Of a stretch of 32,000 bases of DNA, positions 1-19,775 are shown piece by piece. Within the stretch, counting starts at the first letter, position 1. Each line of letters begins with the position of its first letter. The position numbers and the translations under genes were made by a program. This DNA is from Geobacter metallireducens GS-15 (GTDB lineage Bacteria > Desulfobacterota > Desulfuromonadia > Geobacterales > Geobacteraceae), in the NCBI RefSeq assembly GCF_000012925.1, contig NC_007517.1, positions 2,340,001 through 2,372,000 on the forward strand, read 5' to 3'. The notes below the pieces were generated by a model that was not told where the DNA came from, searched no databases, and was given only the letters and a program-made list of their open reading frames with translations.

Positions 1-1138
1 TCTTCCCCACCAGGGAGAAGATCTTGGTCCCCGTGCTCCCCGCGGTGCCGTACGAGGTGAACCAGTCCGCCCCCTTGGTGATGATCTGGGTAACGTTTGC
101 CCAGGTCTCTACGTTGTTCAGGACGCTCGGGTGGTCCCAGACCCCCTTGACAGCGGTATGAATGTACTTGGGCCGCGGCTCGCCGGCTCGCCCCTCCAGA
201 GCCGTCATGAGTGCCGAGGATTCGCCGCAGACAAAGGCGCCGGCACCCATGTGGACCTTGACGGTGAAATCAAAACCCGACCCGAGGATATCCTTGCCGA
301 CGAACCCGCGCTCACTGGCCTGCCGGATAGCGAGGTTGATGTTCTCGACGGCCAGGGGATATTCCTGGCGGACGTAGATGAACCCCTCATGGGCACCGAC
401 CGCATAGGCGCCGATGATCAGGCCTTCGAGGATCGAGTGGGGATTCCCCTCGATGAGCGCCCGGTCCATGAAGGCGCCGGGGTCACCCTCGTCGGCGTTG
501 ACGATCACGTACTTGATCGGGTCCGGGGCATTGCGGGACTCTTCCCACTTGCGCCAGGCGGGGAATCCGCCCCCTCCCCTCCCCCGCAGGTTCGACTTCT
601 TGATCTCCCCCATCACGTCTTCCGGGGTCATCTGGAAGAGAACCTTGGAGAGGGCCGAGTAGCCGCCGATGGCGAGATAGTCGTCCATGCTCTTGGAATC
701 GAGCCGGAGGTTCTCGCTGAGGATGTTGCGCTGCTGGTTCTTGTAGAAGGGAATATCCGACTCCCGCAGCGCCCTTGTTCCCGTGGCCGGATCCTCGTAG
801 AGGAGGCGGTCCACCACCTTTTTCTCCTTGATGGTGTGGGAGACGATCTCGGGTACGTCCTCGGGCTTCACCTTGAGATAGCAGATCCCCTCGGGGTAGA
901 TCATCACGATGGGCCCGCGTTCGCAAAAGCCGGGACAGCCGGTTCCCTTGGTGTTCACTTCAGTCGTCAGGCCATGGAATTCAAGCTCCGTCTTGAAGGC
1001 CGCGATGACCTCGGCTGCCCCGGAGGCGAGGCAGCCGGCACCGGCGCATACCGAGATGCACGGCTTGGTCGGGTCAATGCGGGAGACGATGTCCTTCCTG
1101 GCACATTCCAATTTTTCAGGGGAGCTTAACCTTGTCAT
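1..1138 (-). CDS. bamH: NuoF/HoxF-like NAD(P)H-binding FMN/FeS flavoprotein subunit of class II benzoyl-CoA reductase (BamH-like). The N-terminal 379 codons are present; the 3' end runs off the window.
   Basis: Not in the ORF track because it is open to the window edge. My reverse-strand translation from ATG 1138..1136 (GGGTGA 4 nt upstream) reads MTRLSSPEKLECARKDIV... It has a thioredoxin-like 2Fe-2S region (CISVCAGAGC...GCPGFCERGP). It also has NuoF hallmarks GRGGGGFPAWRKW, NADEGDPGAF and GAGAFVCGESSAL. It starts 10 nt after the bamG stop. Confidence 0.85.
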   Translation of the reverse strand, partial: MTRLSSPEKLECARKDIVSRIDPTKPCISVCAGAGCLASGAAEVIAAFKTELEFHGLTTEVNTKGTGCPGFCERGPIVMIYPEGICYLKVKPEDVPEIVSHTIKEKKVVDRLLYEDPATGTRALRESDIPFYKNQQRNILSENLRLDSKSMDDYLAIGGYSALSKVLFQMTPEDVMGEIKKSNLRGRGGGGFPAWRKWEESRNAPDPIKYVIVNADEGDPGAFMDRALIEGNPHSILEGLIIGAYAVGAHEGFIYVRQEYPLAVENINLAIRQASERGFVGKDILGSGFDFTVKVHMGAGAFVCGESSALMTALEGRAGEPRPKYIHTAVKGVWDHPSVLNNVETWANVTQIITKGADWFTSYGTAGSTGTKIFSLVGK

Positions 1139-1147: not shown

Positions 1148-1600
1148 TTACTCGCAGTTATTCAGCACGGATGCAATCTGGGACGGGGCAATGTTGCCAT
1201 GGTGTTTGCCGTCCACTTCCATAACCGGCCCGAGGGCGCAGCAGCCGAGACAGTTAACGGTTTCGACGCTGAACTTCAGGTCGGAGTCCGTCTCGCCGGA
1301 CTTGACGCCGGTCACCTCCTGCACCGTGTCGAGGACCCGCTGGGCGCCCCGGACGTGGCAGGCAGTCCCCATGCAGACGTGAACCTGATGACGCCCCTTC
1401 GGAACGAGGCTGAAGGCCTTGTAAAACGTGGCAATGTGCGTGATGCGGCTCATGGGCACCTGCAGTCTCTCACAGACTCTTTTCAGCGCCTCCTTGGGCA
1501 ACCAATTGTGCTCGCTCTGGATATCCAGCAGGATCTGTATGAGCGAACTGGCTTCACCGTCATGCTTGTCAATAATCTGGTCTATTCTAGAGATATCCAT
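1148..1600 (-). CDS. bamG: NuoE/HoxE-like thioredoxin-fold [2Fe-2S] ferredoxin subunit (BamG-like)
   Basis: The ORF 1148..1633 contains CMGTACHVRGA...CLGCCALGP, the NuoE 2Fe-2S pattern. I prefer the internal ATG at 1600 (MDISRIDQII) because GGAGGAAAAGGAAGG lies just upstream. The start at 1633 is an alternative. Confidence 0.85.
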   Translation of the reverse strand: MDISRIDQIIDKHDGEASSLIQILLDIQSEHNWLPKEALKRVCERLQVPMSRITHIATFYKAFSLVPKGRHQVHVCMGTACHVRGAQRVLDTVQEVTGVKSGETDSDLKFSVETVNCLGCCALGPVMEVDGKHHGNIAPSQIASVLNNCE

Positions 1601-1788
1601 GGTCGCCTTCCTTTTCCTCCGAGGCACTTGCAAAACTATTGCGGGTCCGGTCTGCGTTGTTGCCGCTTGCTCGAAAGCTCAACGTACCAACGGGTACGCT
1701 TCACTTCCTCGCTCGCTTGCGCCTAGCATCCCGGCCTCCTCATCACGTTTTGCACGTGCCTCTTCCGTAGTCCGCATCCGCCTTTGTA

Positions 1789-2556
1789 TCAGGCCAGTGC
1801 GTACCGCTTCAGCTCTTCGTCGAACCTGACCAGCCCGTGCATGGTCGCGCTCTTCAAGTGCCGTGATACTTCAGATGCGTTCATGCCGAGAGTTGTTACG
1901 ATCTCTCCCGTGTTCAGGGGCTTGTCCTGCAGGAGCAGCGTAATCTGGCTCACCGCCAGCTTGTTTGCCACCAGTTCGTCAAAGAGCTTTTTCAGCTCAT
2001 CACTGGCGAAGAAATCAGTGTACTCCTGCTCCGTCTTGAAGCGCTGCCGCAGCCGTTCCCGTTCCACCAGCTTCACATAGGGGACCAGCTTGTTGGCTGC
2101 TTCCAGCCTGAGCTTCAGGGCGCCCGGCTCTATTCCTTCCCCTTTGCCCAACGGCCCCAGTTCCTTCAGCCTCTTGCCGAAGTCGTTCATCACCTCGGCG
2201 TACCGCATCCCCTCCGAGGCGGCGATCCATTCGAGCCGCAGCCGGTCAGGATTGATGCCGATCCGCTCCAGGATCTTCTTGGCGATGTGCACGTTCTTCA
2301 GCACATCGTAGTTGCCTTCGGTGACATAGTGGCATTCGCCGGGCCAGCAGCCGCCGATGAACACCCCGTCCGCCCCCTTGGAGAATGCCCTGAGCACGAA
2401 TGCCAGGTCCACTCTGCCGGTACACATTACGCGGATAATCTTTGTTTCAGTTGTATATTGCAGTCTGGAAACTCCAGCCAGGTCGGCAGCGCCGTACGCT
2501 CACCATGTGCACAGAAAACCGACTACGCTGGGTTTATGATCTCGTCCGGTACTCAT
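1789..2556 (-). CDS. bamF: MvhD/VhuD-like iron-sulfur subunit (BamF-like), predicted selenoprotein with an in-frame TGA at 2502..2500
   Basis: The track ORF (1789..2427) starts at MCTGRVD, which lies inside the conserved MvhD fold. The same frame continues upstream as MSTGRDHKPSVVGFLCTW-TGA-AYGAADLAGVSRLQYTTETKIIRV. Its ATG at 2556 is preceded by GGAAGGAGA. The TGA sits where MvhD-type proteins carry a Cys of the C-x-W-C-x-x-G-A-D-x-A-G motif. Confidence 0.8.
2461..2502 (-). other. Selenocysteine recoding site: UGA (2502..2500) plus a SECIS-like hairpin (2481..2461)
   Basis: On the mRNA, 18 nt after UGA, lies CUGGCUGGAGUUUCCAGACUG. It folds as CUGG(A)/(U)CCAG with a G/U-containing apical loop and a bulged A. 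The loop is about 30 nt from UGA, within the range described for bacterial SECIS elements. Confidence 0.6.
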
Positions 2557-2606
2557 CTGTACTCTCCTTCCCGGGCAACAGCCGCTGCCCTCTGTGTAGT
2601 GCCTTC

Positions 2607-5600
2607 CTAGTGCTCAGGAAAGGCCGCGTCGATCTGGGCACATATCTCGTCGTCCGTGTAGTGTTTCAGATAAATGGCCCCGGTCGGGCATTTAGCGTTG
2701 CAGAGACCGTCACCCTTGCAGAGGATCGGTTCAACCCGCGCCTTTTTACCGTTGGGCGTGTCGACAAAGCTGATTGCACCGTACTTGCAGGCGGTGATGC
2801 AGGCCCCGCAGGAGACGCAGTCGCTCTCGGTCACATCGCATACGGCCCCGGAGGCGGTGACGGTTTCGCGGGAGAGGATCCCCACGGCGCGCCCCGCTGC
2901 GCCGTAAGCCTGGCTGATGGTTTCCGACAGGTGCTTCGGATAGTGGGCCGTGCCGCAGAGGAAGACCCCGTCCGCCGCAAAATCCACCGGCCTGAGCTTC
3001 ACGTGGGCTTCCTGGAAGAAGCCGTCCGGGTTGTTGGAGACCTTGAATAACTTACCTGCATCCTGGCTCGATTCGGCCGGGATGACCGCGGCGGCGAGCA
3101 CCACCAGGTCGGCCTCCAGCTCCATCATCTGCCCCAAGACCGGATCGGGGACCGTTACCTTGAAGCCATCCCCCGCGGCCTCCACCACCGGCTTGGTCTC
3201 CGCCTCGTAGCGGATGAACTTCACGTTCTTCTCCGACGCCTCGCGGTAGTAGGTCTCCTTGAGGCCATAGGTCCGCATGTCCCGGAAGATGATCTGGATC
3301 TCCATCTCCGGATTGATCTCCTTGAGTTTATGGGCGTTCTTGATGGCCTGGCTGCAGCAGACGCGGCTGCAGTAGTTGCGGTCAGCCTGGCGGCAGCCGA
3401 CGCACTGGATCATCACCACGCTCTGGGCGCCCGTCACCTTCTCGCTCTGGCTGACAATCTCCCCTTCCAGCTCCAGCTGGGTCAGGACCCGGTCGCTCTC
3501 GCCGTAGAGGTATTCAGTCGGCTTGTATTCCTGGGCGCCGGTGGCGATCACGGCCACGCCATGCTTCACTTCCCGGTTGCGACCCTGGGAGGTCACCGTG
3601 GTGACGAAGTTCCCCACGTAGCCGGAGACATCGGTGATGTTCGCATCGGTCCAGACATGGACCCGCGGGTGCCGGTAGACCTTTTTGACCAGGTCCGCAA
3701 GGAAGGACTGGACATCCATCCCCTCCAGGGTGTAGTGGAGGCGCCGCGCCATACCGCCCAGGTCATCATCCTTCTCGATGAGGTAAACCTCGAAACCCTG
3801 CTCGGCCATGTTGAGGGCGGCGGTCATGCCGGCCACCCCGCCGCCGACCACGAGTCCCGTGTGGTCCACCGGCAGCTGGAACTCCTGCAGCGGCTCCAGG
3901 TGCGCGGCCCGGGCAACGGACATCCTGACGATCTCTTTTGCCTTCTGGGTGGCGCTCTCCTTCTCGCGGGAGTGGACCCAGGAGCAGTGCTCGCGGATGT
4001 TGGCGAACTCGAAGAAGTACTGGTTGAGCCCCGCTTCCCGGCAGGTATCCCGGAAGAGCGGCTCGTGGGTCCGTGGCGTACAGGCGGCCAGGACGACCCG
4101 GTTGAGCCCCTTTGCCACGATGGCGTCCGAGATCTGCTTGGCGTTCTCCGTGGAGCAGGCGAACAGGTTCTCACCGGCCCAGGCGACGTTGGGGAGCGTG
4201 GCCGCGTATTCAATCACTTCGGGGATATTGACGACCCGGCCGATGTTGGCGCCGCAGTAGCAGACGACGACCCCGATCTTCAACTCCTCCTGGGAGACAT
4301 CCTTCTCCGGCGGGTAGACCCGCTCCCGCTCCAGCCGGCCGCGCCGGTAGGAGAGAAGCTGGCCGCAGAGGGCGCCGGCGCCGCTGGCGGTCACGACCGA
4401 CTCGGGGATGTCGAGGGGGCCCTGGAACGCGCCGCTGACAAAGACCCCTTTGCGGGAGGTTTCGATGGGATTGTACGGATTGTTCTTGCAGAATTTCTGG
4501 TCGGTGAGCTCAATGCCGATCTTGCTCGCCAGGGCCTCCACATCCTTCGGCGGGTTGAGCCCCACCGACAGGACCACCATGTCGAATTCTTCTTCCTTCA
4601 CCCCGTCGTCAACGGTGGAGTAGCGGATGGTGACGTTCTTGGTGCTCTCGATCTCCCGCCCGATGGTCACGTAACTCCGGACAAAGCGCACGTCGGAGAG
4701 CTTTTCCGCCCGCTGGTGGAAGCGCTCGAAGTCCTTGCCATAGGCCCGAACGTCGTTATGGAAGATGGTGGCCTGGAGGTCGGCGTCGTGGTCCTTGGCC
4801 AGGATCACCTGCTTCTGGCTGTAGGCGCAGCAGACGGCCGAACAGTAGTTGTTCCCCCCCTCGTTCACCTGCCGGGAGCCGACACACTGAATCCAGGCGA
4901 TCTTGTGGGGATGCTTCTTGTCCGAGGGGCGCAGGATCTCACCCTCGTAGGGACCGGTGGCGCAGAGAATCCGCTCGAAGTCGAGGCTGGTGACCACGTT
5001 CTGCATCCGGCCGTAGCCGAAATCGCCCCGAAGCTTCGGGTTGAAGGTCTCGTAGCCGGGGGAGAGGATGATCGCCCCCACCTCCACCACCATGGTCTCC
5101 GGCTTCTGGTGGAGATCGATTGCCTTGGTCTTGCAGGCGCCGACGCAGATCTGGCATTTCCCCTCTTTGAGGTAGAGACAGGTCTCCGGGTCCACGTAGG
5201 TGACCAGCGGCACCGCCTGGGAGAAGTAGATGTGAACCGCCTTGTTCTCGGACAGGTTCTGGTTGAACGGATCGGGGATCTTGACCGGGCAGTAGTCCAC
5301 GCAGATGTTGCAGCCGGTGCACTTCTCTTCCGAGATATACCGGGGCTTCTTGGTCAGCGTTACCCGGAAATCTCCCGCCTCGCCGTCGACCCGCTCCACT
5401 TCCGTATAGGTGATGATCTCGATGTTGGGGTTCCTGGCGCATTCGATGAACTTCGGCGACTCGATGCACATGGAACAGTCGTTGGTGGGGAAGGTCTTGT
5501 CCAGCTGGGACATCTTGCCGCCAAGGGCCGGCGATTTGTCGACCAGGAAGACCCGGAACCCCGAATTGGCGAGATCGAGAGCGGCCTGAATACCGCTGAT

Positions 5601-5651
5601 CCCTCCGCCGACAATAAGTACGTCACCAATATTTCTGTCTGAGGTATTCAT
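2607..5651 (-). CDS. bamE: Tandem double HdrA-like FAD/FeS oxidoreductase subunit (BamE-like), 1014 aa
   Basis: There are two Rossmann FAD motifs (VGGGISGIQAA near the N-terminus; VGGGVAGMTAA near residue 610). Each is followed by a CVG(S/C)RQ...YCS.VCC module. 4Fe-4S ferredoxin motifs are present (CTGCNICVDYCP, CQICVGACK, CVSCGACITACK, CKGDGLCNAKCP). Confidence 0.9.
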   Translation of the reverse strand: MNTSDRNIGDVLIVGGGISGIQAALDLANSGFRVFLVDKSPALGGKMSQLDKTFPTNDCSMCIESPKFIECARNPNIEIITYTEVERVDGEAGDFRVTLTKKPRYISEEKCTGCNICVDYCPVKIPDPFNQNLSENKAVHIYFSQAVPLVTYVDPETCLYLKEGKCQICVGACKTKAIDLHQKPETMVVEVGAIILSPGYETFNPKLRGDFGYGRMQNVVTSLDFERILCATGPYEGEILRPSDKKHPHKIAWIQCVGSRQVNEGGNNYCSAVCCAYSQKQVILAKDHDADLQATIFHNDVRAYGKDFERFHQRAEKLSDVRFVRSYVTIGREIESTKNVTIRYSTVDDGVKEEEFDMVVLSVGLNPPKDVEALASKIGIELTDQKFCKNNPYNPIETSRKGVFVSGAFQGPLDIPESVVTASGAGALCGQLLSYRRGRLERERVYPPEKDVSQEELKIGVVVCYCGANIGRVVNIPEVIEYAATLPNVAWAGENLFACSTENAKQISDAIVAKGLNRVVLAACTPRTHEPLFRDTCREAGLNQYFFEFANIREHCSWVHSREKESATQKAKEIVRMSVARAAHLEPLQEFQLPVDHTGLVVGGGVAGMTAALNMAEQGFEVYLIEKDDDLGGMARRLHYTLEGMDVQSFLADLVKKVYRHPRVHVWTDANITDVSGYVGNFVTTVTSQGRNREVKHGVAVIATGAQEYKPTEYLYGESDRVLTQLELEGEIVSQSEKVTGAQSVVMIQCVGCRQADRNYCSRVCCSQAIKNAHKLKEINPEMEIQIIFRDMRTYGLKETYYREASEKNVKFIRYEAETKPVVEAAGDGFKVTVPDPVLGQMMELEADLVVLAAAVIPAESSQDAGKLFKVSNNPDGFFQEAHVKLRPVDFAADGVFLCGTAHYPKHLSETISQAYGAAGRAVGILSRETVTASGAVCDVTESDCVSCGACITACKYGAISFVDTPNGKKARVEPILCKGDGLCNAKCPTGAIYLKHYTDDEICAQIDAAFPEH

Positions 5652-5702: not shown

Positions 5703-6866
5703 CTAGATCACTTCCAGGATAATTTCCGCCAGGTCCTTCACCTCGACCTTCTCGTGATCCGCCAGATCCAGGCTGCTGTCCGTGAAGTTCGTGATGCAGT
5801 AGGGGCAGGAGGTGGCCAGCACCGTAGCCCCCACGTCTACCGCCTGCCTGATTCTCAGGTCGGCGAACCGCTCTTCCTTCGGCGTTTCCATCCAGATCCG
5901 GCCGCCGCCGCCGCCGCAGCAGAGGCTGCTTTCCCGGTTGTCCGCCATCTCCAGCAGTTCGAGGCCCGGGACCTGCTGCAGCACTTGCCGGGGCTCGTCG
6001 TAGATGCCGTTGTGGCGCCCCAGGTAGCACGGGTCGTGATAGGTCACCTTCTTCGCGAACTCGCCGGTGATCTGGAGCCGCCCCTCGTTGATGAGCTGGC
6101 CGATGTACTGGGAGATGAAGACCACCTCGAAGTTCACCTTGAACTCGGGATACTCGTTCACGAAGGTGTGGTAGCAGTGGGGTGAGGAAACGAGAATCTT
6201 CGTGACGCCGTTATCGATGAACTGCTTGATGTTCTCCTTGGCCAGCCGCTTGAACAGCTCTTCGTTACCGGTCTTGCGGATACTCTCCCCGCAGCAGCTC
6301 TCCTTGGAACCGAGGATGCCGAAATCAACCCCGGCCTTGTTGAGAATGGCGGCGGTAGCAGCGGCCACCTTTCTCATCCTCGGGTCGTAGCTCAGGTAAC
6401 AGCCGGTGAAGTAGAGAAGCTCCATCCCCTCGGCATAGGGCTTGACCGGCAGGTCCTTGGCCCAATCGCCCCGCTGGGTCCGATCGCCCCCCAGGGAGTT
6501 ACCCTCGGAGGTGAGGCTCGCCACCACGTTGCGGATAGTCCCCACGTGGCCGGGATAGACATCGTATTCTGCGCCGATCCGGCGCATGGCGACCCCGGCC
6601 TCAATCTGGTTCACCCCCCTGGGGCAGCGGCTGGGGCAGGTTCCGCAGGTGCTGCAGCGCCAGATGTCTTCCTGTTCGATCTCGGTCAGGCCGAACGTCC
6701 CCTGACGGACGATCTTGCGCATGCTGAACTGCCGTACCCGGTTCCAGGGGCAGACCGAATCGCACAGACCGCACTGGTAGCAGTACTTGAGCGAGTCGCC
6801 CCCCTTCTCTTTGATGACGTCGATGATCTCTTTGTATGGAGTAACGGTTTCCACGATGGCACCCAT
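5703..6866 (-). CDS. bamD: HdrD-like heterodisulfide-reductase-type subunit with 2x[4Fe-4S] and two CCG domains (BamD-like)
   Basis: CYQCGLCDSVCP and CSTCGTCPSRCP ferredoxin motifs are followed by CCG-domain signatures (ESCCGES, SSLCCGGGGG, PYC). Confidence 0.9.
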   Translation of the reverse strand: MGAIVETVTPYKEIIDVIKEKGGDSLKYCYQCGLCDSVCPWNRVRQFSMRKIVRQGTFGLTEIEQEDIWRCSTCGTCPSRCPRGVNQIEAGVAMRRIGAEYDVYPGHVGTIRNVVASLTSEGNSLGGDRTQRGDWAKDLPVKPYAEGMELLYFTGCYLSYDPRMRKVAAATAAILNKAGVDFGILGSKESCCGESIRKTGNEELFKRLAKENIKQFIDNGVTKILVSSPHCYHTFVNEYPEFKVNFEVVFISQYIGQLINEGRLQITGEFAKKVTYHDPCYLGRHNGIYDEPRQVLQQVPGLELLEMADNRESSLCCGGGGGRIWMETPKEERFADLRIRQAVDVGATVLATSCPYCITNFTDSSLDLADHEKVEVKDLAEIILEVI

Positions 6867-6880: not shown

Positions 6881-7441
6881 TTAGCGTTTTTTGGTGAGCT
6901 GCTCAACCGTATCGGCGACCACGTCTGCGCCAAATCTGCTGATGAGGGATTCCAGACCTATTTCCATCTCGGTTCTCTTTACGCTCTCGTCGGGCTCTTC
7001 CACTTCCCGCTCCGTGACGCTCAGGGCGCCCACGAGGCACCACTTGACGCAGAGGGGCTCGGGCTCGCCGTCGCAGAGGTCGCACTTGAGGGGAAGGCCC
7101 GAATCGGGCTCCCGGAACAGGTCCCGGGAGGGGCAGGAGGCACGGCAGAACCCGCACTCGTCGTACTCCTTGCCGTCAATGATGAACTTGTCCCTGCCGA
7201 TGCACTCCGACTCGGTGTACTCCCCGGCATAGAGCGGCACATAGATGTCTCTCAGGGGATCGCGCACCACCCTGACCCGGGAGCGTGCCGGATTGTTGCT
7301 GCTGTACGGCGGCATGGCGTGGAAGGCGGAGCAGATCACTTCGCAGGCCCGGCAACCATTGCACTTGTCGGCATCGATATTTATGGTCTTGACTATTCTC
7401 TTCTTCGTCTCGCTGTTCAAGTTCTCGCCCTCCACTCTCAA
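6881..7441 (-). CDS. bamC: Poly-[4Fe-4S] ferredoxin subunit partnering the AOR-like enzyme (BamC-like)
   Basis: Cys clusters are CNGCRACEVIC, CGFCRASCP and CDLCDGEPEPLCVKWC. The start is uncertain. The track start at 7441 is TTG with a poor SD. A TTG at 7420 (MNSETKK) has GGAGGG 7 nt upstream. Confidence 0.85.
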   Translation of the reverse strand: MRVEGENLNSETKKRIVKTINIDADKCNGCRACEVICSAFHAMPPYSSNNPARSRVRVVRDPLRDIYVPLYAGEYTESECIGRDKFIIDGKEYDECGFCRASCPSRDLFREPDSGLPLKCDLCDGEPEPLCVKWCLVGALSVTEREVEEPDESVKRTEMEIGLESLISRFGADVVADTVEQLTKKR

Positions 7442-7468: not shown

Positions 7469-9430
7469 TCAACCGGCCGACAGAATCCCGCGCTTGATGA
7501 ATTCATCGCCCACGTAGCCCAGACCCAGATCGTCCAGGGTTTCCTTCGTCGGGATGCCGTCATCGTTCCACCCCTTGAGTTTGTAGTAGGAATCCAGAAG
7601 CTCCTTCTCAAGCTCGGGGAACCTGTTTTTCCAGTGGTTTGCGGGGGGCTGCTCGTCGACCCGCCTCATCCCCCTTCTGATGTTGAAGGCCCGGACCAGG
7701 GTGCGGTAGCGCTTCGCCGCCTTCTTGAGCTTCTCCGTGTCCATCTCGATGCCGGCGCCGGCCGCGATGAACTTGGGATAGTTGTGGATGTGGTACGGCG
7801 GCTTCAGGGGGAATGAGGAGAGGCCGGCGCATTGCCCGAGAGCGTCGTCGATGTAGTGCATCATCTCCTGCCAGTCGACGATGTCGCAGCACATGTCGAC
7901 CGTGGGGAAGTTGGGCATCGACTTCTCGCCGCGGGGCTCCCACTCCAGGAAGATCTTCTTGAACTTCTCGTCCGGCACCTGGATCCAGTCCTCGACAAAG
8001 GCCTCCCGCTGCTCCAGCTTCGGATACGGAGCCTGGGGGAACTGCCCTTCGATCTGGGTGATGTTGATCTTCTCCCCGGTGCAGTACATGAGATAGTAGA
8101 TAGGGTTCAGCATGGAAAGCTTGAGCGGCAGCTGCTCATGCTTCTTGATGTTGTTGTGGGCGTAATCCTCGGCCCCGTTGCCGATCTCCTGCGCCGCCCA
8201 GTAGGTGCCGTTGGCCAGGATGTCGCCGATGCCGTCGCGATTGACGATTTTGTCGAGGAGGTAGAAGAATCTTTCTTCGTTCCCCTCGGGCAGGCCCGGG
8301 AAGTCGGAATCCTTGAGGATTCCCTTTTCCAGGAGTTCGAAGGCAAAAGCCATGACCTGCGGAGCGGAGAAGCCGTCAAGCCCGTACTCGGTGGCCTTCT
8401 GGGCGATCCGCAGGCCGAAATCCAGGTCCGAGTAGGCGGCCATGGTATAGGTGAGCTTGGTGAAGCACTTCATCATATAGGTGGGGAGCCCCTCCATGGA
8501 AATGGTGGCCCCGCACTTCATGGGACAGTTGTAACAGCTGATGAGGCGCGTGCGGGCCTTATCCATGGTTTTTTCCCAGGCGTGCGACACCTCGTCGGTC
8601 CAGAAGTCCTTCCGGCGGGTACGGGCGTTCCCCCAGTTGAAGTTCTCGGTGTGCCACTTTTCGTCATGGACCTTCATCTCCTGGGGCGACCCGAGGCCGG
8701 CCAGGATGGGCATCACGTCCGGAATCGGATTCTCTTCCCGGTGCTTGATGTAGTCGAGCACCTCGTTGCAGAGACCGATGTACTCCTCCGGCTTGGCCAC
8801 ACAGAGGTCCTTGGTCCCGCGCACCACGACGGCCTTGAGCCCCTTGTCCCCCATGACGGCGCCGATCCCGCCGCGGCTGGCGCTGGACCGCCCCTGCTCA
8901 ATGGAGGCATAGAAGACCCGGTTCTCCCCGGCCTTGCCGATGGCGGCCACCTGGGCCCGCGGCTCGTTCAGCTCCTTCTTGATGATCTCCGCCGTTTCGA
9001 TAGCCCCCTTCCCCTTCAGATGGGAGGCGTCACGGATCTCAACCTTGTCGTTGTTGATATAGAGATAGACCAGTTCCGGCGACTTACCGCGGAAGATAAT
9101 CTTGTCGTAACCGGCATACTTCAGTTCCGGCGCCCAGAACCCCCCCATCATCGAGAAAGCCATCAACTTGGTCTGGGGAGAAACGGTGGAGACGATGGTG
9201 CGGTTGCATCCGGTTGCCGGCGTCCCGCACAACAGGCCTGCGGCGAAAATCAGGAGATTCTCCGGCGAGAATGGCTCGACCTCAGGGGGAACCCTGTCCC
9301 ACAGGATCTTGGCATTGGTTCCCAGCCCACCGAGATACAGCTCGGTATCCCTCGGATCAGTTGCCACCCTCTCTATGCTTCCCTTGGTCAGATCAACTTC
9401 CAGCACATATCCGGTCTCTGCATACCTCAT
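7469..9430 (-). CDS. bamB: Aldehyde:ferredoxin-oxidoreductase-family tungsten-pterin catalytic subunit of class II benzoyl-CoA reductase (BamB-like), 653 aa
   Basis: An AOR-family N-terminal and catalytic layout runs the full length. I place the start at ATG 9430 (MRYAETGYVLEVDL), which has GGGGTGA upstream. This also matches the BamB N-terminus as I remember it. The 23 codons upstream in the track ORF overlap the predicted promoter region. Confidence 0.9.
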   Translation of the reverse strand: MRYAETGYVLEVDLTKGSIERVATDPRDTELYLGGLGTNAKILWDRVPPEVEPFSPENLLIFAAGLLCGTPATGCNRTIVSTVSPQTKLMAFSMMGGFWAPELKYAGYDKIIFRGKSPELVYLYINNDKVEIRDASHLKGKGAIETAEIIKKELNEPRAQVAAIGKAGENRVFYASIEQGRSSASRGGIGAVMGDKGLKAVVVRGTKDLCVAKPEEYIGLCNEVLDYIKHREENPIPDVMPILAGLGSPQEMKVHDEKWHTENFNWGNARTRRKDFWTDEVSHAWEKTMDKARTRLISCYNCPMKCGATISMEGLPTYMMKCFTKLTYTMAAYSDLDFGLRIAQKATEYGLDGFSAPQVMAFAFELLEKGILKDSDFPGLPEGNEERFFYLLDKIVNRDGIGDILANGTYWAAQEIGNGAEDYAHNNIKKHEQLPLKLSMLNPIYYLMYCTGEKINITQIEGQFPQAPYPKLEQREAFVEDWIQVPDEKFKKIFLEWEPRGEKSMPNFPTVDMCCDIVDWQEMMHYIDDALGQCAGLSSFPLKPPYHIHNYPKFIAAGAGIEMDTEKLKKAAKRYRTLVRAFNIRRGMRRVDEQPPANHWKNRFPELEKELLDSYYKLKGWNDDGIPTKETLDDLGLGYVGDEFIKRGILSAG

Positions 9431-9510
9431 ATTCTCACCCCTTCGTAGGTCACCTTGATACGGGCTCCGCTTATCGGGACCGAAGCCAACATTTGCCACA
9501 CTTTAGTAAT

Positions 9511-9628: not shown

Positions 9629-10774
9629 TTACTTCTGCGCCGTCGGCATGAGGCTCTCGATCAGCTCCTCGGTCCAGGGCGTCCCCTTGGCCAGACCCTG
9701 GCGCAACTTCACAAAGTCGATCTCGCGGCCGGTCTCCTTGGTCCCCTCGTTGAAGGCCCGGAAGCCGGTGCGGGCCTCATTCATCATGTTGAGGGCCAGC
9801 CAGGCGCGGGAGTTTTCCTTGTTGAGGTTCCATGCATGGAGCTTCGGCTTGCGCAGCTCCTCCAGGCTCTTGGTCATGCACTCCGGGAAGGTCTCCAGCA
9901 GCTTCGTGCAGAGCGACTCAACCTTCTCGTCCAGCAGACTGAGATCAATCTCCCCTTCCTTGATCTGCCCCTGCCCTTCCTTGAAGGCGGCGCCGGCCTT
10001 GAACTCGCCATGAACGACCCGGCCGTACTCGTCCAGATAACGGTCGGTGACCACGGTCGGGTTGGCGACGAATTTGCCACCCACCTTGAGGGCCGGCACC
10101 ACGTCACAGATGATCCCCAGGCGGGCGGCCTTGTGGGCCGAGAACGGCTCGCACAGCGTACCGGACACCATGGCCTGCTCGCAGCCGACCATCAGCGGCA
10201 GGAAATCGGTCGCCCCGCCGATGGCGGCAGAGCCATGCTTGGGACCGGCCTGACCGAAGTTGGCCAGGTCCTGGGCGATGGAGAAGTCGCAGGCCATGCC
10301 GATTTCCTGGCCGCCGCCGATCCGCATCCCGTTCACCCGGCTGATCACCGCCTTGTCGCAGCCGAGGATGGCGGAGACCATGTCGTTGAACAGCCGCATG
10401 TACTGGCGATACTCTTGGGGGTTACCGGCATAGTACTCTGCGTATTCCTTGGTATTGCCGCCGGTGCAGAACGCCTTGTCGCCAACACCGGTGAAGACCA
10501 CGGCATTCACGGAGCGGTCGACCGAGGCCCGCCGGAAGGCGAGGATGATTGCCTTGACCATGTCAGTGGTGTAGGAGTTGTACTGCTTGGGGTTGTCCAG
10601 GATGATCCAGGCGTTGTAAATCCCCTCTGCCACACTGCCGTCATGACGCTTTGCCGGCCGCTTCTCGTACTTCACCATGCCGTCGCAGAGGCTCTCAACC
10701 TCACGGTCGATCAAATTGTGGTCGTTCAGGTGCCCCGGTGCGGTTCTTGCGATTATCTCGTCTGTTCTCGCCAT
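9629..10774 (-). CDS. bamA: 6-oxocyclohex-1-ene-1-carbonyl-CoA hydrolase (ring-cleaving crotonase-superfamily enzyme, BamA/Oah type), 381 aa
   Basis: Crotonase-fold motifs are present (VVFTGVGDKAFCTGGN, RIGGGQEIGMACDFSIA). The size and the extended C-terminus are typical of BamA/Oah. I prefer the start MARTDEII at 10774, which has GGGGGAGGAAAAG upstream, over the track start at 10822. Confidence 0.88.
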   Translation of the reverse strand: MARTDEIIARTAPGHLNDHNLIDREVESLCDGMVKYEKRPAKRHDGSVAEGIYNAWIILDNPKQYNSYTTDMVKAIILAFRRASVDRSVNAVVFTGVGDKAFCTGGNTKEYAEYYAGNPQEYRQYMRLFNDMVSAILGCDKAVISRVNGMRIGGGQEIGMACDFSIAQDLANFGQAGPKHGSAAIGGATDFLPLMVGCEQAMVSGTLCEPFSAHKAARLGIICDVVPALKVGGKFVANPTVVTDRYLDEYGRVVHGEFKAGAAFKEGQGQIKEGEIDLSLLDEKVESLCTKLLETFPECMTKSLEELRKPKLHAWNLNKENSRAWLALNMMNEARTGFRAFNEGTKETGREIDFVKLRQGLAKGTPWTEELIESLMPTAQK

Positions 10775-10851
10775 TGCTTTTCCTCCCCCGTTGGATATTT
10801 TCGTACAAGCCCTACTATTCAAAACAACGTTTCATGCTCTATTTATGTAAA

Positions 10852-12078: not shown

Positions 12079-13408
12079 AAAACTAAACCTTTTTGATTCA
12101 ATAAGTTAGCGAACTGTGCTATATTTTTACGCGTAACAATCTGAATTTACAGGAGAAAAGTTATGCGCGGCGCCGAGACAAAAACCGAAGCTCTGTTCTG
12201 TTATCTCTCCCCTGAGTCGTACGTCCCGAAGGACCACCCCTTGCGGTCGATCAGGGCGATGGTGGATAAGGCCCTTGCAGAGCTCAGCCCGCAATTCGAG
12301 GCCATGTACTCCCACACCGGCCGGCCCTCGATTCCTCCTGAGCAGTTGCTTAAAGCACTTCTGCTTCAGGCGCTGTACACCATCAGGAGTAACCGTCTGC
12401 TGGTGGAGCAGATCAGCTACAGCATCCTGTTCCGCTGGTTTGTGGGATTGGCCCTGGACGAGAAGGTCTGGGACCACTCCTCGTTTTCCACCAACCTGGA
12501 GCGGTTGATCGATACCGACGTGGCACGGCTGCTCTTGGCAAAAGTAGTTGAGCAGGCCCGAAGGGCAAAGCTGTTGTCCGACGAGCACTTCAGCGTTGAC
12601 GGCACCCTCATCGAGGCGTGGGCTTCTATCAAGAGCTTTCGGCCCAAGGATGGACCAAAGCCTCCAGTGGGTCGTAACACGGAGCGTGATTTCCACGGCG
12701 AAAAGCTCAAAAACGACACCCATGCCTCCACCACCGATCCGGATGCGCGGATTGCCAGGAGAAGCTCGGGCAAAGAGGCGAAGCTCAGTTACCACGGGCA
12801 CGCTCTCATGGAGAACCGCAACGGGATCATCGTCGATGCCAGAATCACCCACGCAACCGGTACCGCTGAGCGGGATACCGCAGTCGAGATGATCGCAGAC
12901 GTCGCCGGTAACAAGCGGATCACCATGGGCGGCGACAAGGGCTACGACACCAAAGAGTGCGTCAAAGATCTGCGAGCACTCAAGGTAACCCCTCACATTG
13001 CTCAGAACACCGCTAACCGCCGCTCAGCCATCGATGGCAGGACTACCCGCCACGAAGGCTACAAAACCAGCCTGAGGATTCGCAAGCGGATCGAAGAGGC
13101 CTTCGGCTGGCTCAAGACTGTCGGCAATCTCCGCAAGACCCGGCATCGGGGAATAGCGAAAGTCGACTGGTACTTCACCATGGCCATTGCGGCATACAAT
13201 CTGGTCCGGCTGCGCAATCTCGGGACGAAAACGGCATAATCAGGGGAATAATGCGACTCTTGGTGGCAAAGCCCGCCCGAAAAGGCCAAATCAAGGTAAA
13301 AAGCAAAGTTTCAAAGAACGAATAGGGCGAGATCAATGCAACTATCGGCCTAAAATGATCTCCTTGAAGGGGATTGCCCTGGAAATGAAGGAGTTTTTCA
13401 ACGGCCTG
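12068..13408 (+). mobile_element. IS5-family insertion sequence, 1341 bp, complete
   Basis: Terminal inverted repeats are CAGGTTGTTGAAAAACT (12068-12084) and the reverse complement of AGTTTTTCAACGGCCTG (13392-13408), matching at 15 of 17 positions. They are flanked by a direct TTAG (12064-12067 and 13409-13412). The element has a single transposase gene and a higher GC content than the surrounding islet. Confidence 0.8.
12163..13239 (+). CDS. IS5-family DDE transposase (358 aa)
   Basis: The N-terminal InsH-type domain is present (SIPPEQLLKALLLQALYTIRSNRLLVEQISYSILFRWFVGL). A C-terminal DDE region is present (DKGYD..., EEAFGWLK). AGGAGA SD. Confidence 0.9.
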   Translation: MRGAETKTEALFCYLSPESYVPKDHPLRSIRAMVDKALAELSPQFEAMYSHTGRPSIPPEQLLKALLLQALYTIRSNRLLVEQISYSILFRWFVGLALDEKVWDHSSFSTNLERLIDTDVARLLLAKVVEQARRAKLLSDEHFSVDGTLIEAWASIKSFRPKDGPKPPVGRNTERDFHGEKLKNDTHASTTDPDARIARRSSGKEAKLSYHGHALMENRNGIIVDARITHATGTAERDTAVEMIADVAGNKRITMGGDKGYDTKECVKDLRALKVTPHIAQNTANRRSAIDGRTTRHEGYKTSLRIRKRIEEAFGWLKTVGNLRKTRHRGIAKVDWYFTMAIAAYNLVRLRNLGTKTA

Positions 13409-13431
13409 TTAGAAATTGGTTATCTGAAAGA

Positions 13432-16400
13432 TTGCAATTTAAAGACGAATCCATGCAACAATTCGTTGCTGAGATCATTTCAGAAAATGACATCCTTCCT
13501 TTTTGGAACGATGAACTTTGGATATCCATTCTTCTTTCAGATCATTCAGCAACGTTTTTTGTATTATTCAAAGAAGAATTGCTCAGCAATGATCAGGCAC
13601 TATTAAAAAGACTGACCTTTCTGTTAAGGCTTGCCTGTAAGGATGTTGACAATGACTTGCTCAAGCTACTAGGGGTAGACGACTTAAATCTGTTATCAAT
13701 TAAATATGTGCTGACCAAACCTAAGGGTTCAGGCTGGCAAAATGCCATACGATTTATACATGATAATTTGGAAAAAATAGGCATTAAGAATATTCATTTT
13801 GCTCTCCCATTAATCCATGAATGGAATCAAAAGAATAGGCAGGGAGAGACAACAAAATCATCGAGCCTGATAGCCCTTAAATATTATCAATGGACAATTG
13901 AAGAGGATGTTTACCTGTCGAGAGGCGATGATAAAGAAAAGATATTGCAAACCATTCTCAGCGGAGCTTCCGAAATTAAGACTGAATTGGAGGGGATATT
14001 CAAGGAAGTTCTAGAAAATAAGTGGAACAATCATAGAGACCCTTATTATGATCTGATGAAAGTAATTCTGAAGGAGATGGATGCTCTTCCAGTTTGGGCT
14101 ATTTTCCCGGAACATGTCTTGGAAATAGCCGACTTATTTTGGTTCTATATTCCTCAAAAATATAACCATTACTACCATCGGATGGATATTGAAGACGAAT
14201 TTTGTTTAAATCATAGTCATTACGATTATTTCCCATCAAGTCCGTATCAAACACCCATCTATTGGCTACTTCAGTGTTCGCTCCAAAAAACCGTGGACTT
14301 CATCTTATCTTTCACAAACAAGACTGTTGAATGTTTTGCTAGTTCTAGTGTTGGAAAGAATGAAATAGAAGAAGCTGTCGTTATTATTGATGATCTTTCA
14401 ATAAAACAATACATATGCAACAAACTTTGGTGTATGTACAGAGGCACACAGGTTTCCACGCAGCTTCTTGAATCAATTCACATGGCTTTAGAAAAGTTCT
14501 TCCTTGAATCAGCCAAGAAGCAAGATTCAAAAATACTCGAAAGCTGGCTGATATATATTTTGAAGAACTCAAAATCTGCTTCGCTGTCAGCAGTAGTTAC
14601 CAGCATAGTATTAGCGTATCCAGAAAAGACATTTAATGTCGCTAATATACTTTTCCAGACAAAGCTTTTCTTTCTATATGATGTGAATAGGTTCAGTTTG
14701 GATCAGTCTCATAAAAGCTCTCTTCTCATGCTGAAAAAGAATTTTGGAGGAGGTAACTATAAAAATGCTCCCCATGAAGAAGAGAGAATAAAATCTTGCG
14801 ATGAACCACATAGAAAAGTGCATCTTGAAAATTTGGCATTAAATTATCAGTTTTTCAGGAGCGAAGAAACAAGCGAGGACGAGGCCAACGAGAGACAACG
14901 GGTCATTTGGTCTGTCTTCGACAAATATTATAGCGAGTTGCCCGATGAGACTAAAGAGAATGATGGCGATAAGACATGGAGACTCTTTCTTGCAAGAATG
15001 GATCGACGCAAGATGAAGCCAACAACCGAAGCGACAAATGATGGAGTTCTGATCAATTTCAATCCTGAAATTGATCCAAGGCTTAAGGAATATAGCGAAG
15101 AGGCTGTTAAGAAAAGTTCCGAGCCAATGAAATACATGTCGTTGAAATTATGGGCAAGTTACAAGAAGGACAAGGATGAACGCTTTAAGCAATATGTGCA
15201 GTATGAAAACAGCCCTCAACTCGCTTTAAAGGAAGTGAAGGAAATAATCGACAGGTTTAAAAAAGGAGAGGATGAAAGCTTCCATCTTTTCAATCGTTCC
15301 ATACCGGGAGAAGTTTGCTCTATCTTAGCTAAACATCATTTCGACAAACTTTCTGAAGATGAAAGAAATTTTTGCAAAGATGTTATTCTGGAGTATGCGC
15401 AAGCCTCACTAACGCCTAATTATCATTACCAGATTTCTGATGGAACCGACTCGGCTATTTCGGCATTGCCGACACTTCTGCAATATTATCCAGAAGAACG
15501 CGACGGCATAAAAATGATTCTGCTCCTTACCTTGTTTGATAATTCCTCGATTGGGATGTGGGGAGGCCATTATAGCGTTTTCCCCAGCATGGCAATTCAT
15601 CAATTGTGGGAAAGCCATTTTGATGACATGCAATCCTTGCTTATCGGATATCTGCTGCTTAAGCCCAGGCATGTAGAGATGAGGAGGAAGCTTCAACTGG
15701 ATGGCTACGAGAACGGGGTATATGAGATTCCCGATGGGCAGGACCTCCGGAACTTCTTTCAAGAATATGAGCCTGTTCTGGAAAGAGTTGCGGAGAACAA
15801 GGTATCAATATCTGATCTGAAGGATATTGAGCAAACAGATTTATACATCCTGAACACAGCCTTTCAACTTATTCCCTTGAAGACAATCCACGCCGAACAT
15901 ATAAAGTTAGCACTGACCATAATTGCAATCTTCGCCAGCCATCTATTGTCTCGCGATAAAAAGGACAAGGTTGACTATTCTGTCCGGCATTCATTCTTGG
16001 AAAGATTTACTTACCTTGTTCTGAATTCTTCCGAACAAGATGTTTCGGAATATCTGAAACCGTTCCTGGATAATTTCAACGGTTCAGAAACGGCGGCTGA
16101 GCTACTAGAGCAATTTGTTTTAGCCCAAGACCGGATAGATGCTTATGACCGGTTTTGGCAAGTTTGGACCCTATTTTTTGGGAAAATAGTCGCTCTGTGC
16201 AAAGATGGCGATGGATATTGGTACGTCGACAGGATTGTAAGGAGCTATCTATTCGCACAAACTCAATGGAAAGAAACGGCGACGGATTGGCATACTTTTA
16301 AGGACGGCAATAGCAAATTTTTCGCGGATGTTGCTAAAAATATCGGTCATTGTCCATCAGTCTTATACTCGCTTGCGAAATCGTTAAACGATATAGCAAG

Positions 16401-16647
16401 CAGATATCTTAATTTTGGAATTTCGTGGCTGTCAGGGATGATGACCGCCCATAAGCAATTGTGGACTTCAAAGTTGGAAACTAACACTCAATACTATCTT
16501 GAAAATCTTGTTAGGAAATATATCTACAAAGAACGCGAAAAAATAAGAAGGACTAAGCAGTTAAAAGAAGAGGTTTTGGTAATATTAGAATTTCTAATTG
16601 AGAGAGGCTCCGTTGTTGGATATATTCTGCGAGAAAATATCCTATAA
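13432..16647 (+). CDS. Large (1071 aa) AT-rich orphan protein, predicted all-alpha/helical-repeat, no recognisable catalytic motif
   Basis: A long uninterrupted ORF in 40%-GC DNA is unlikely to be a shadow ORF. The start is unclear: TTG 13432 or ATG 13453, neither with a convincing SD. I found no Walker A, HxH, DxD or Cys-cluster motifs by eye. Confidence 0.7.
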   Translation: MQFKDESMQQFVAEIISENDILPFWNDELWISILLSDHSATFFVLFKEELLSNDQALLKRLTFLLRLACKDVDNDLLKLLGVDDLNLLSIKYVLTKPKGSGWQNAIRFIHDNLEKIGIKNIHFALPLIHEWNQKNRQGETTKSSSLIALKYYQWTIEEDVYLSRGDDKEKILQTILSGASEIKTELEGIFKEVLENKWNNHRDPYYDLMKVILKEMDALPVWAIFPEHVLEIADLFWFYIPQKYNHYYHRMDIEDEFCLNHSHYDYFPSSPYQTPIYWLLQCSLQKTVDFILSFTNKTVECFASSSVGKNEIEEAVVIIDDLSIKQYICNKLWCMYRGTQVSTQLLESIHMALEKFFLESAKKQDSKILESWLIYILKNSKSASLSAVVTSIVLAYPEKTFNVANILFQTKLFFLYDVNRFSLDQSHKSSLLMLKKNFGGGNYKNAPHEEERIKSCDEPHRKVHLENLALNYQFFRSEETSEDEANERQRVIWSVFDKYYSELPDETKENDGDKTWRLFLARMDRRKMKPTTEATNDGVLINFNPEIDPRLKEYSEEAVKKSSEPMKYMSLKLWASYKKDKDERFKQYVQYENSPQLALKEVKEIIDRFKKGEDESFHLFNRSIPGEVCSILAKHHFDKLSEDERNFCKDVILEYAQASLTPNYHYQISDGTDSAISALPTLLQYYPEERDGIKMILLLTLFDNSSIGMWGGHYSVFPSMAIHQLWESHFDDMQSLLIGYLLLKPRHVEMRRKLQLDGYENGVYEIPDGQDLRNFFQEYEPVLERVAENKVSISDLKDIEQTDLYILNTAFQLIPLKTIHAEHIKLALTIIAIFASHLLSRDKKDKVDYSVRHSFLERFTYLVLNSSEQDVSEYLKPFLDNFNGSETAAELLEQFVLAQDRIDAYDRFWQVWTLFFGKIVALCKDGDGYWYVDRIVRSYLFAQTQWKETATDWHTFKDGNSKFFADVAKNIGHCPSVLYSLAKSLNDIASRYLNFGISWLSGMMTAHKQLWTSKLETNTQYYLENLVRKYIYKEREKIRRTKQLKEEVLVILEFLIERGSVVGYILRENIL
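13438..13466 (+). other. Candidate -1 frameshift site: T_TTA_AAG heptamer (13438-13444) followed by hairpin ACGAAT-N10-ATTCGT (13445-13466)
   Basis: The heptamer is in the X_XXY_YYZ phase of the IS-restored TM ORF frame. A -1 slip enters the 1071-aa ORF frame. The hairpin starts with no spacer, which is atypical. Confidence 0.3.
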
Positions 16648-16688
16648 ACATAACTGGGAATAAAGAATATAAATTTGTTCAACCAAGC

Positions 16689-16712
16689 GCACCACCGGTC
16701 AAGCCGGTGTGC
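16689..16712 (+). terminator. Hairpin about 40 nt downstream of the 1071-aa ORF stop; possible terminator
   Basis: CACCGG (16693-16698) pairs with CCGGTG (16704-16709) around a 5-nt loop. A 1-nt bulge then allows 3 further bp. No U-tract follows. Confidence 0.3.
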
Positions 16713-16785
16713 TCTCCCCCGTTGGGCAATAAAAATGACAATTAAAGAACTCCATAAAATTCTTCTATTAATCGGCTTTGAAAAA

Positions 16786-16881: not shown

Positions 16882-16897
16882 AAATTGGATGCCGATC

Positions 16898-18691: not shown

Positions 18692-18718
18692 CGGATTCTC
18701 CTTTGGTCTTCACGTCTG

Positions 18719-19699: not shown

Positions 19700-19775
19700 A
19701 GACACCTCACATATCAAACGATCTGTTCAAGAACGTGCCGTCTACCTGGCCACCGGGGCGAGTTATTATAGTATT

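Follow-up and report, generated by a model that had tools for sequence, protein, structure and literature searches.

Selenocysteine in BamF of Geobacter metallireducens: a recoded UGA codon, its candidate SECIS hairpin and the shortened gene calls

The MvhD, VhuD and FrhD proteins (PF02662) are [2Fe-2S] adaptors of Hdr-associated hydrogenases that pass electrons to an HdrA-type bifurcating flavoprotein, and CxxU is a listed motif of the MvhD/VhuD selenoprotein family. The archaeal VhuD gene has an archaeal SECIS in its 3'-UTR. In the bacterial model, for which E. coli fdhF is the standard example, the hairpin follows the UGA closely on its 3' side, inside the coding sequence, and has a small apical loop beginning with G-U. 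The published rules for such bacterial elements (Zhang and Gladyshev model, PMC13188914) call for 3-9 nt in the apical loop, 4-16 bp in the upper stem, a G at loop position 1 or 2, usually followed by G or U, a distance of 16-37 nt from the UGA to the apical loop, and a minimum free energy of -7.5 kcal/mol or lower.

The selenocysteine of BamF is already published and annotated, and the analysis below confirms that it is real and was correctly read. The TGA codon of bamF was reportedly described in 2005, already with the first description of the bam cluster. The locus tag of the gene is Gmet_2083 (Butler et al. 2007). The 2006 selenoproteome survey lists G. metallireducens as selenocysteine-decoding, with SelD and eight selenoproteins, including a member of the FrhD(MvhD) family, and a 2026 cryo-EM preprint names and draws Sec19 of BamF in its model of the class II benzoyl-CoA reductase. 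The initial annotation had likewise stated that selenocysteine had been reported in Bam-type benzoyl-CoA reductase components of Geobacter. The preprint describes BamF as a single-electron relay that links the BamGHI module with the bifurcating FAD of BamE.

The analysed stretch of the G. metallireducens GS-15 genome (32 kb, below called the window) contains the same gene in the same order, bamB-C-D-E-F-G-(H), with selenocysteine at residue 19. The 255-aa product is 100% identical to RefSeq WP_004514583.1 / EHP84198.1. The database copy of WP_004514583.1 has C, not U, at position 19, which we take as a substitution for U. The sole difference from the described gene is in the ORF track of the window, which gives a mechanical ORF of 212 aa against the curated product of 255 aa. 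On the minus strand, the bamF frame runs from ATG 2556 through 255 codons to the stop codon TGA at 1791..1789. The elements of the frame are as follows.

1789..2556, minus strand: full bamF coding sequence, including one UGA (Sec19) and the stop codon (translation, Pfam, RefSeq match)
2564..2569, minus strand: Shine-Dalgarno core AAGGAG with a 7-nt spacer to the bamF ATG (sequence)
2554..2556, minus strand: true start codon ATG of bamF (sequence, translation, Met in related loci)
2500..2502, minus strand: UGA codon 19, selenocysteine, forming a CxxU motif with Cys16 (aligned TGA/Cys codons, family motif, preprint)
1789..2427, minus strand: short ORF of 212 aa starting with MCTGRVD, as given by ORF and gene callers (ORF list)

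The initial annotation had proposed that the frame stays open upstream to an ATG with a strong Shine-Dalgarno sequence and that one TGA is its only interruption. All coordinates hold on the minus strand, and translation verifies TGA 2502..2500 as the sole in-frame interruption. The start codon is preceded by GGGAAGGAGAG, and a Met about 18 codons ahead of the Sec/Cys codon is present in related bamF loci as well. The track ORF is the same frame minus its first 43 codons. No Shine-Dalgarno sequence was found before its ATG at 2427, where the upstream sequence is AAGAUUAUCCGCGUA.

Two domains were identified in the 255-aa product.

2155..2526, minus strand: MvhD/FlpD [2Fe-2S] domain, aa 11-134 (Pfam PF02662 and PDB MvhD matches)
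1852..1950, minus strand: C-terminal winged helix-turn-helix, aa 203-235 (Pfam HTH_5, 28 bits)

The FlpD profile (PF02662) is matched in full, from position 1 to 123 of 123, with a score of 167.7 bits against a gathering cut-off of 22.3, and the PDB MvhD chains 8rvu_F, 5odc_D and 7bkb_F match BamF with E-values of about 1e-41 to 1e-43. The complete match needs the N-terminal extension. The track ORF had been described as beginning in the middle of an MvhD-type fold; indeed, the first 33 residues of the domain are absent from it. Since the FlpD match is full and the peptide upstream of the TGA is conserved in 80 related loci, the 255-codon frame is beyond chance. The domain core of BamF is 40-50% identical to those of the solved MvhD chains, and with the MvhD/VhuD/FrhD proteins BamF shares the place of the CxxC/CxxU motif and the role of electron adaptor to an HdrA-type flavoprotein. 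Unlike these proteins, BamF has a specific C-terminal extension of approximately 120 aa, which includes the winged helix-turn-helix, and docks to a NuoEF/HydBC-like module (BamGHI), whereas the MvhD family docks to a hydrogenase. In the 2026 cryo-EM preprint the winged helix-turn-helix of BamF contacts BamI.

The genes on both sides of bamF are conserved together with it.

2607..5651, minus strand: bamE, fused double HdrA-like flavoprotein, directly upstream of bamF (Pfam)
1148..1633, minus strand: bamG, thioredoxin-like [2Fe-2S] protein of the NuoE/HoxU type, directly downstream (Pfam PF01257, 171.9 bits)

Of 79 loci in other genomes, 76 have bamE upstream of bamF and 75 have bamG downstream of it. 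The next gene, the NuoF-like bamH, extends past the start of the window. The HdrA protein of methanococci contains selenocysteine. In bamE, a selenocysteine was ruled out: its ORF of 1014 codons is unbroken and takes up the whole interval from bamD to bamF. Elsewhere in the cluster, the mechanical start of the bamB ORF at GTG 9499 is probably too early. No genes for the selenocysteine machinery and no tRNA-Sec were found in the 32-kb window.

We compared codon 19 across 80 loci of bam clusters in other genomes. It is TGA in 57 of them and TGC or TGT in the remainder; counted by gene copies, there are 59 TGA and 23 TGC/TGT codons at the aligned position. The flanking peptide, before and after this codon, is conserved throughout the 80 loci. 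Cysteine stands opposite the BamF TGA in every aligned 255-aa database homologue and in all five of the solved MvhD chains that had a printed alignment. The alignment suggested in the initial annotation gives Cys or Sec as the counterpart of U in all full-length homologues. These data support the reading of bamF as a UGA-recoded selenoprotein gene from which gene callers drop the first 43 codons.

Sec-type and Cys-type bamF genes form essentially two clades. The Cys-type proteins, found in Dehalococcoidia, Betaproteobacteria, Acidobacteriota and other MAGs, have the same 255-aa architecture and bamE-bamF-bamG context and are 58-65% identical to BamF. They differ from the Sec-type in the TGC/TGT codon, the absence of a conserved hairpin, the choice of arginine codon and, usually, an additional Cys at +1 (W-C-C).

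A stem-loop at 2481..2461, beginning 18 nt after the UGA, had been noticed at first reading. Its position is confirmed, and comparative data back the hairpin.

2461..2481, minus strand: bacterial SECIS hairpin (predicted), 21-nt element CUGGCUGGAGUUUCCAGACUG (folds, conservation, published bSECIS rules)

The core stem is formed by five pairs between CUGGA (2477..2473) and UCCAG (2469..2465) and closes the loop GUU (2472..2470). Below the core the lower stem is weak, with A2464 bulged or mismatched. The distance from the UGA to the apical loop is 27 nt (2499..2473, between A2500 and G2472), and this spacing is the same in all Sec-type loci. The hairpin thus agrees with the bSECIS rules for stem (5 bp), loop (3 nt), loop G followed by U, and spacing (27 nt). 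Like the fdhF element it lies in the coding sequence, although the two sequences are unrelated. The energy depends on the segment that is folded. The isolated hairpin, at -6.0 kcal/mol, is weaker than the cut-off of the rules; the segment from the UGA to +45 gives -11.6 to -13.1 kcal/mol, and for orthologues whose lower stem is complete the values are -11 to -12 kcal/mol. The 71-nt region around the UGA has no better fold energy than its shuffles (z = 0.27), and therefore the support for the SECIS is comparative, not thermodynamic. A scan of the whole window at Rfam gathering thresholds gave no match. A curated family for bacterial SECIS elements is not known in Rfam, and the empty scan is thus uninformative.

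The comparative signal was derived from 49 distinct Sec-type sequences. The loop nucleotides G34 and U35 do not change in any of them, and the five core pairs are formed in 49/49, 49/49, 49/49, 49/49 and 45/49 sequences. No compensatory covariation was observed in the core stem of this set, its pairs being invariant. The lower stem is paired in about 40-90% of the sequences, depending on the pair, with two-sided changes at one pair (4 cells), and it has two alternative registers set by Ala (GCU) or Ser (UCU) at codon +8.

In Sec-type genes there is almost no variation in the hairpin codons GCU/UCU-GGA-GUU-UCC-AGR. The third-position entropy is 0-0.2 bits in four of the five codons and 0.74 bits at Arg (AGA/AGG), versus 1.4-1.7 bits at four-fold sites flanking the hairpin in the same genes. 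The Cys-type genes encode the same A-G-V-S-R peptide with 1.2-1.85 bits and have no conserved hairpin; as the two types form essentially two clades, this control is not phylogenetically independent of the Sec-type comparison. The arginine codon is AGR in 58 of 58 Sec-type genes and always CGN in Cys-type genes. Together, these codon patterns support selection at the RNA level, probably acting only in genes that carry the TGA. The Cys-type genes still prefer GGA-GUU-UCC (14-17 of 23), which hints at their descent from a Sec-type ancestor.

The 13-nt core CUGGAGUUUCCAG shows virtually no variation across the bamF genes of at least eight phylum-level lineages: Geobacterales, Desulfobacterales, Myxococcota, Chloroflexota, Syntrophorhabdus, Gemmatimonadota, Latescibacterota and Thermoanaerobaculia. 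We found no published description of this cross-phylum invariance in the literature. It may define a BamF-specific class of SECIS, an interpretation that we offer tentatively and with some doubt. One possible sense of such a class is that the bam cluster was transferred together with a SelB-compatible element; another is an additional role of the hairpin or of the A-G-V-S-R peptide.

Several other explanations of the TGA were weighed against these data. Under one of them bamF is a pseudogene, its TGA being due to an error in sequencing or to a nonsense mutation of this strain. Nothing beyond the stop codon itself speaks for this, and the conservation of the TGA across genomes already refutes it: the same TGA occurs at the same codon in 57 independent genomes and MAGs, the identical gene is present on at least 24 independently assembled contigs, and both bamF, apart from this codon, and the operon are intact. 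Under another, the TGA is a real stop, bamF starts at ATG 2427 (MCTGRVD), and the 18 codons upstream are a decayed remnant or a mini-ORF. The 212-aa form is indeed the output of the ORF listing and of automated gene callers, and calls of this kind have been deposited for G. hydrogenophilus and G. pickeringii. However, such a protein would be without 33 FlpD residues and two of the five conserved Cys/Sec positions, and its ATG has no Shine-Dalgarno sequence. Moreover, the 80 loci show strong conservation of the amino acids from the TGA to Met44, unlike what would be expected of an untranslated spacer, the Cys-type orthologues are continuous 255-aa proteins, and the presence of Sec19 in the cryo-EM model implies that residues 1-43 are translated. 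A real stop thus has next to no probability.

It is also very improbable that the UGA is read without selenium, by near-cognate insertion of Trp or Cys or by SelB-delivered Cys, so that residue 19 is mainly a standard amino acid. Sequence alone gives no proof of selenium incorporation, and cysteine is functional at position 19 in an entire BamF clade and in every MvhD structure. On the other hand, wherever there is a TGA there is also a strongly selected SECIS-type hairpin, and the Cys genes lack it. Work of 2004 is said to have found selenium-dependent benzoate metabolism and 75Se-labelled proteins in Desulfococcus multivorans, which has a related enzyme; this too argues against read-through without selenium. 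Finally, the species is recorded as selenocysteine-decoding, with SelD and an FrhD/MvhD-family selenoprotein, and the cryo-EM preprint assigns selenocysteine at this residue.

The reading that remains is almost certainly correct: bamF of the class II benzoyl-CoA reductase cluster encodes a 255-aa MvhD-type adaptor, with selenocysteine inserted at the UGA by means of an in-frame SECIS. The gene is assigned to bamBCDEFGHI, the cluster of the class II (tungsten, ATP-independent) enzyme of G. metallireducens GS-15. Translation would begin at ATG 2556, and at UGA 2502..2500 the ribosome would insert selenocysteine and not terminate. The mRNA hairpin CUGGA-GUU-UCCAG (2477..2465) would act as the bacterial SECIS and, by analogy with the general bacterial pathway, recruit SelB-GTP and Sec-tRNA(Sec) to the A site. 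The predicted product is a [2Fe-2S] adaptor with a C16-x-x-U19 motif and a C-terminal winged-helix extension. The present analysis establishes the frame, the completion of the domain, the Sec/Cys pairing in the 80 loci, the UGA-specific conservation of the hairpin, the gene context and the RefSeq identity.

The initial annotation had placed U at the site of a cluster-ligand cysteine. This is probably wrong. In the 2026 cryo-EM preprint, the MvhD cysteine equivalent to Sec19 lies near the [2Fe-2S] cluster, is redox-active and forms a disulfide, which argues against a ligand role of position 19; Sec19 itself is proposed there to form a selenenylsulfide. The homologue alignment contains five conserved Cys/Sec positions in the domain (C16, U19, C45, C70 and C75) for a cluster with four ligands, a pattern that would be consistent with one of the five being a non-ligand residue. 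No second statement on which MvhD cysteines ligate the [2Fe-2S] cluster was found in the literature, and the ligand question rests on one sentence of the preprint. Beside the [2Fe-2S] cluster, Sec19 may act in the one-to-two-electron hand-over to the bifurcating FAD.

The gain for the biology is small, as selenocysteine in BamF is established; what matters in practice is the 212-aa call, which many deposited genomes still carry. The exact 212-aa product of G. metallireducens was found only as automated calls (Logan assemblies), the same short form has been deposited for G. hydrogenophilus (GLI39308.1) and G. pickeringii (AJE03540.1), and nearly all of the nearest homologues that automated pipelines have added to databases are 212 aa long. 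The expectation that gene callers would shorten BamF is thus borne out, both in pipelines and in several GenBank records. Unless the TGA is read as selenocysteine, the 212-aa form misleads the modelling and comparison of class II benzoyl-CoA reductases from metagenomes. If CUGGAGUUUCCAG does mark a BamF-specific class, it could be a simple DNA marker for the repair of short bamF calls, and in metagenomes it could separate class II benzoyl-CoA reductases that depend on selenium from those that do not.

bamF lies in the bamBCDEFGHI cluster of the class II benzoyl-CoA reductase. The genes surrounding bamF are as follows.

7469..9499, minus strand: bamB, aldehyde:ferredoxin-oxidoreductase type
6881..7441, minus strand: bamC, ferredoxin-like
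5703..6866, minus strand: bamD, HdrD-like, with CCG domains
2607..5651, minus strand: bamE, double HdrA-like flavoprotein
1148..1633, minus strand: bamG, NuoE-like [2Fe-2S] protein
1..1135, minus strand: NuoF/HoxF-like frame with the motif GAGAFVCGESSALMTALEG, running off the window start

The last frame is presumably bamH; it is missing from the ORF list because the window edge cuts it. The mechanically called bamB ORF has a GTG start at 9499 (minus strand) and encodes 676 aa. No record of this exact product was found on look-up, and the true start is probably downstream. A transposase block (12163..18080) is inserted between a bamA-like enoyl-CoA hydratase gene (9629..10822, minus) and MOSC and MoaA genes (18233..19717, minus). 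Its two DDE transposase genes (12163..13239, plus; 16911..18080, minus) lie on either side of a 1071-codon ORF (13432..16647, plus) with no Pfam match. The region 22565..31997, adjoining the bam cluster, looks like a phenol or aromatic-acid degradation module. It contains genes for a XylR-type sigma-54 activator (22565..24289, minus), two PEP-utilising/PPDK-like proteins (24686..27928, plus) and a UbiD-family carboxylase (27981..29525, plus), as well as UPF0261, CBS-domain and flavoprotein (UbiX-like) genes.

Reading of the minus strand of 1700..2700 and translation of 2580..1789 gave the following features of bamF.

2569..2564, minus strand: Shine-Dalgarno core AAGGAG, 7-nt spacer to the ATG
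2556..2554, minus strand: ATG start, preceded by GGGAAGGAGAG
2502..2500, minus strand: the sole in-frame TGA within the frame
2481..2461, minus strand: 21-nt element CUGGCUGGAGUUUCCAGACUG, starting 18 nt past the UGA
1789..2427, minus strand: mechanically called ORF of 212 codons, in the frame of the ATG at 2556
1791..1789, minus strand: terminal stop TGA

The start, Shine-Dalgarno box, TGA and 21-nt element are all where the initial annotation had placed them, and its observation of an in-frame extension upstream of the called ORF is confirmed. The conceptual protein has 255 residues, MSTGRDHKPSVVGFLCTW-U-AYGAADLAGVSRLQY... No Shine-Dalgarno box was found upstream of the ATG at 2427.

A Pfam search with cysteine substituted for the TGA produced a match to FlpD/MvhD (PF02662; 167.7 bits) at residues 11-134, covering positions 1-123 of the 123-position profile, and a weaker match to an ArsR-type HTH at residues 203-235. 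Since the domain spans residues 11-134, the 212-aa version would lack its first 33 residues. BamF is best described as a [2Fe-2S] adaptor of the MvhD type that has gained a winged-helix extension specific to BamF. Prokaryotic selenoproteins with a CxxU motif are well established in the MvhD/VhuD/FrhD family, and C16-T-W-U19 of BamF is this motif.

In protein databases, the closest relatives of BamF (78-92% identity) all appear as 212-aa calls with the same truncation, and those at 62-69% identity are continuous 255-aa proteins. The cysteine that pairs with the TGA is invariant in the aligned 255-aa relatives and belongs to the motif FLC-x-W-C. The same pairing is observed in the alignments with five MvhD chains of solved structure, 8rvu_F, 8rvv_F, 5odc_D, 7bkb_F and 9sw2_D.

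We then considered 80 related loci, with one representative genome per species. At the aligned codon, 57 loci carry TGA (59 copies; Sec-type) and the others carry TGC or TGT (23 copies; Cys-type), and the peptide is retained on either side of the TGA. These are true bam clusters: bamE is upstream and bamG downstream in 54 and 54 of the 57 Sec-type loci, and in 22 and 21 of the 22 Cys-type loci. On a neighbour-joining tree the two types separate essentially into two clades, and at least two state changes are needed.

The residue at codon +1 (2497..2499), immediately after the TGA or cysteine codon, follows the Sec/Cys state. In Sec-type genes it is Ala or Gly (first base G in 58/58); in Cys-type genes it is Cys in 20 of 23, yielding W-C-C, and otherwise Ser. 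This could reflect a UGA context requirement or functional compensation by a vicinal cysteine. One Thermoleophilia MAG (L055) has two Sec-type bamF-like N-termini on one contig (Sec codons at 2810 and 3749). Lying about 940 nt apart, they look like a tandem duplication, and one of the two copies is the long-branch outlier of the tree.

The sequence CUGGA-GUU-UCCAG downstream of the TGA is near-invariant in all Sec-type genes, with proteins diverging to about 60% identity. The hairpin falls in codons for A/S-G-V-S-R. Codon usage is a natural comparison, as Cys-type genes encode the same peptide.

Third-position entropy in hairpin codons (58 distinct Sec-type and 23 Cys-type sequences)
+8, Ala/Ser (Ala/Cys in Cys-type): Sec-type GCT or TCT 58/58, 0 bits; Cys-type 1.26 bits
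+9, Gly: Sec-type GGA 57/58, 0.13 bits; Cys-type 1.21 bits
+10, Val: Sec-type GTT 56/58, 0.22 bits; Cys-type 1.19 bits
+11, Ser/Thr: Sec-type TCC or ACC 58/58, 0 bits; Cys-type 1.44 bits
+12, Arg: Sec-type AGA or AGG 58/58, 0.74 bits; Cys-type always CGN, 1.85 bits

CGN is unable to complete the stem. Given the two-clade split, the contrast between the types is not independent at every node. The contrast within Sec-type genes is free of this problem: four-fold sites just upstream of the hairpin have 1.4-1.7 bits. Of 49 aligned sequences, 49, 49, 49, 49 and 45 can form the five core pairs, and 19-46 the four outer pairs. There is no compensatory covariation in the core, because it never varies. 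Judged from these alignments, what supports the candidate hairpin is that it is conserved more than the coding function requires, and only in genes with the UGA.

The stem-loop that the initial annotation called SECIS-like fits the published bacterial constraints (the bSECISearch model of Zhang and Gladyshev, as summarised in PMC13188914) on apical loop (3 nt, GUU; 3-9 required), loop G (first loop position, followed by U), upper stem (5 bp; 4-16) and UGA-to-loop spacing (27 nt; 16-37). Against the required -7.5 kcal/mol or lower, the hairpin alone has an MFE of -6.0 and the segment from the UGA to +45 has -11.6 to -13.1. The fold energy of the UGA region is not unusual compared to shuffles, and no Rfam match was found for the element.

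Thus cysteine pairing, the recurrent TGA and selection on the hairpin agree that bamF is a recoded selenoprotein gene. A genuine stop with translation starting at Met44 is excluded: the FlpD domain is complete only with the extension, the Met44 ATG lacks a Shine-Dalgarno box, residues 1-43 are conserved, and the cysteine orthologues are continuous. The recurrence of this TGA in 57 genomes likewise excludes a sequencing error or pseudogene. Selenium-free read-through is unlikely to be the main route, given the selection on the SECIS and the literature.

In the best-supported account, ribosomes start at the ATG at 2556; by analogy with the general bacterial mechanism, the in-frame hairpin would then bring SelB with Sec-tRNA(Sec) to UGA-19. 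Selenocysteine is inserted there, and translation continues to the 255-aa BamF. In a cryo-EM preprint of 2026 on the enzyme of G. metallireducens, BamGHI is joined to BamE/D via BamF, and Sec19 is modelled. [quoted passage not shown] Conserved Cys/Sec residues number five in the BamF-homologue alignment, one more than a four-ligand cluster needs, which is consistent with one being a non-ligand. Apart from this detail, the initial interpretation is supported.

The selenocysteine of BamF was already known from the CxxU family, the preprint, the listing of G. metallireducens as Sec-decoding, with SelD and an FrhD-family selenoprotein (Zhang et al. 2006), and the full-length RefSeq protein. The latter (WP_004514583.1, G. 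metallireducens, 255 aa) is identical to our translation with the TGA read through, and falls in the same protein cluster as truncated BamF. Truncation by gene callers, also suspected initially, is widespread. Automated Logan assemblies have a 212-aa bamF, so that about 180 nt following bamE are left uncalled. GenBank has 212-aa forms from cultured species, GLI39308.1 (G. hydrogenophilus, "hypothetical protein") and AJE03540.1 (G. pickeringii), and despite the 212-aa deposit the G. hydrogenophilus locus (L001, 6001..6759) shares the TGA, the hairpin and the conserved N-terminus.

Three points are mildly new, at a descriptive level only: many phyla share a near-invariant 13-nt SECIS core, Sec-type and Cys-type genes separate cleanly into two clades, and bamF is mis-annotated on a wide scale. 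Cys-type genes (e.g. L031, L033, L036, L048) favour the hairpin codons (GGA 17/23, GTT 16/23, TCC 14/23). An ancestral SECIS may have left this bias behind; comparable SECIS-like remnants have been described (Zhang et al. 2006). If so, it would suggest that the change was from selenocysteine to cysteine.
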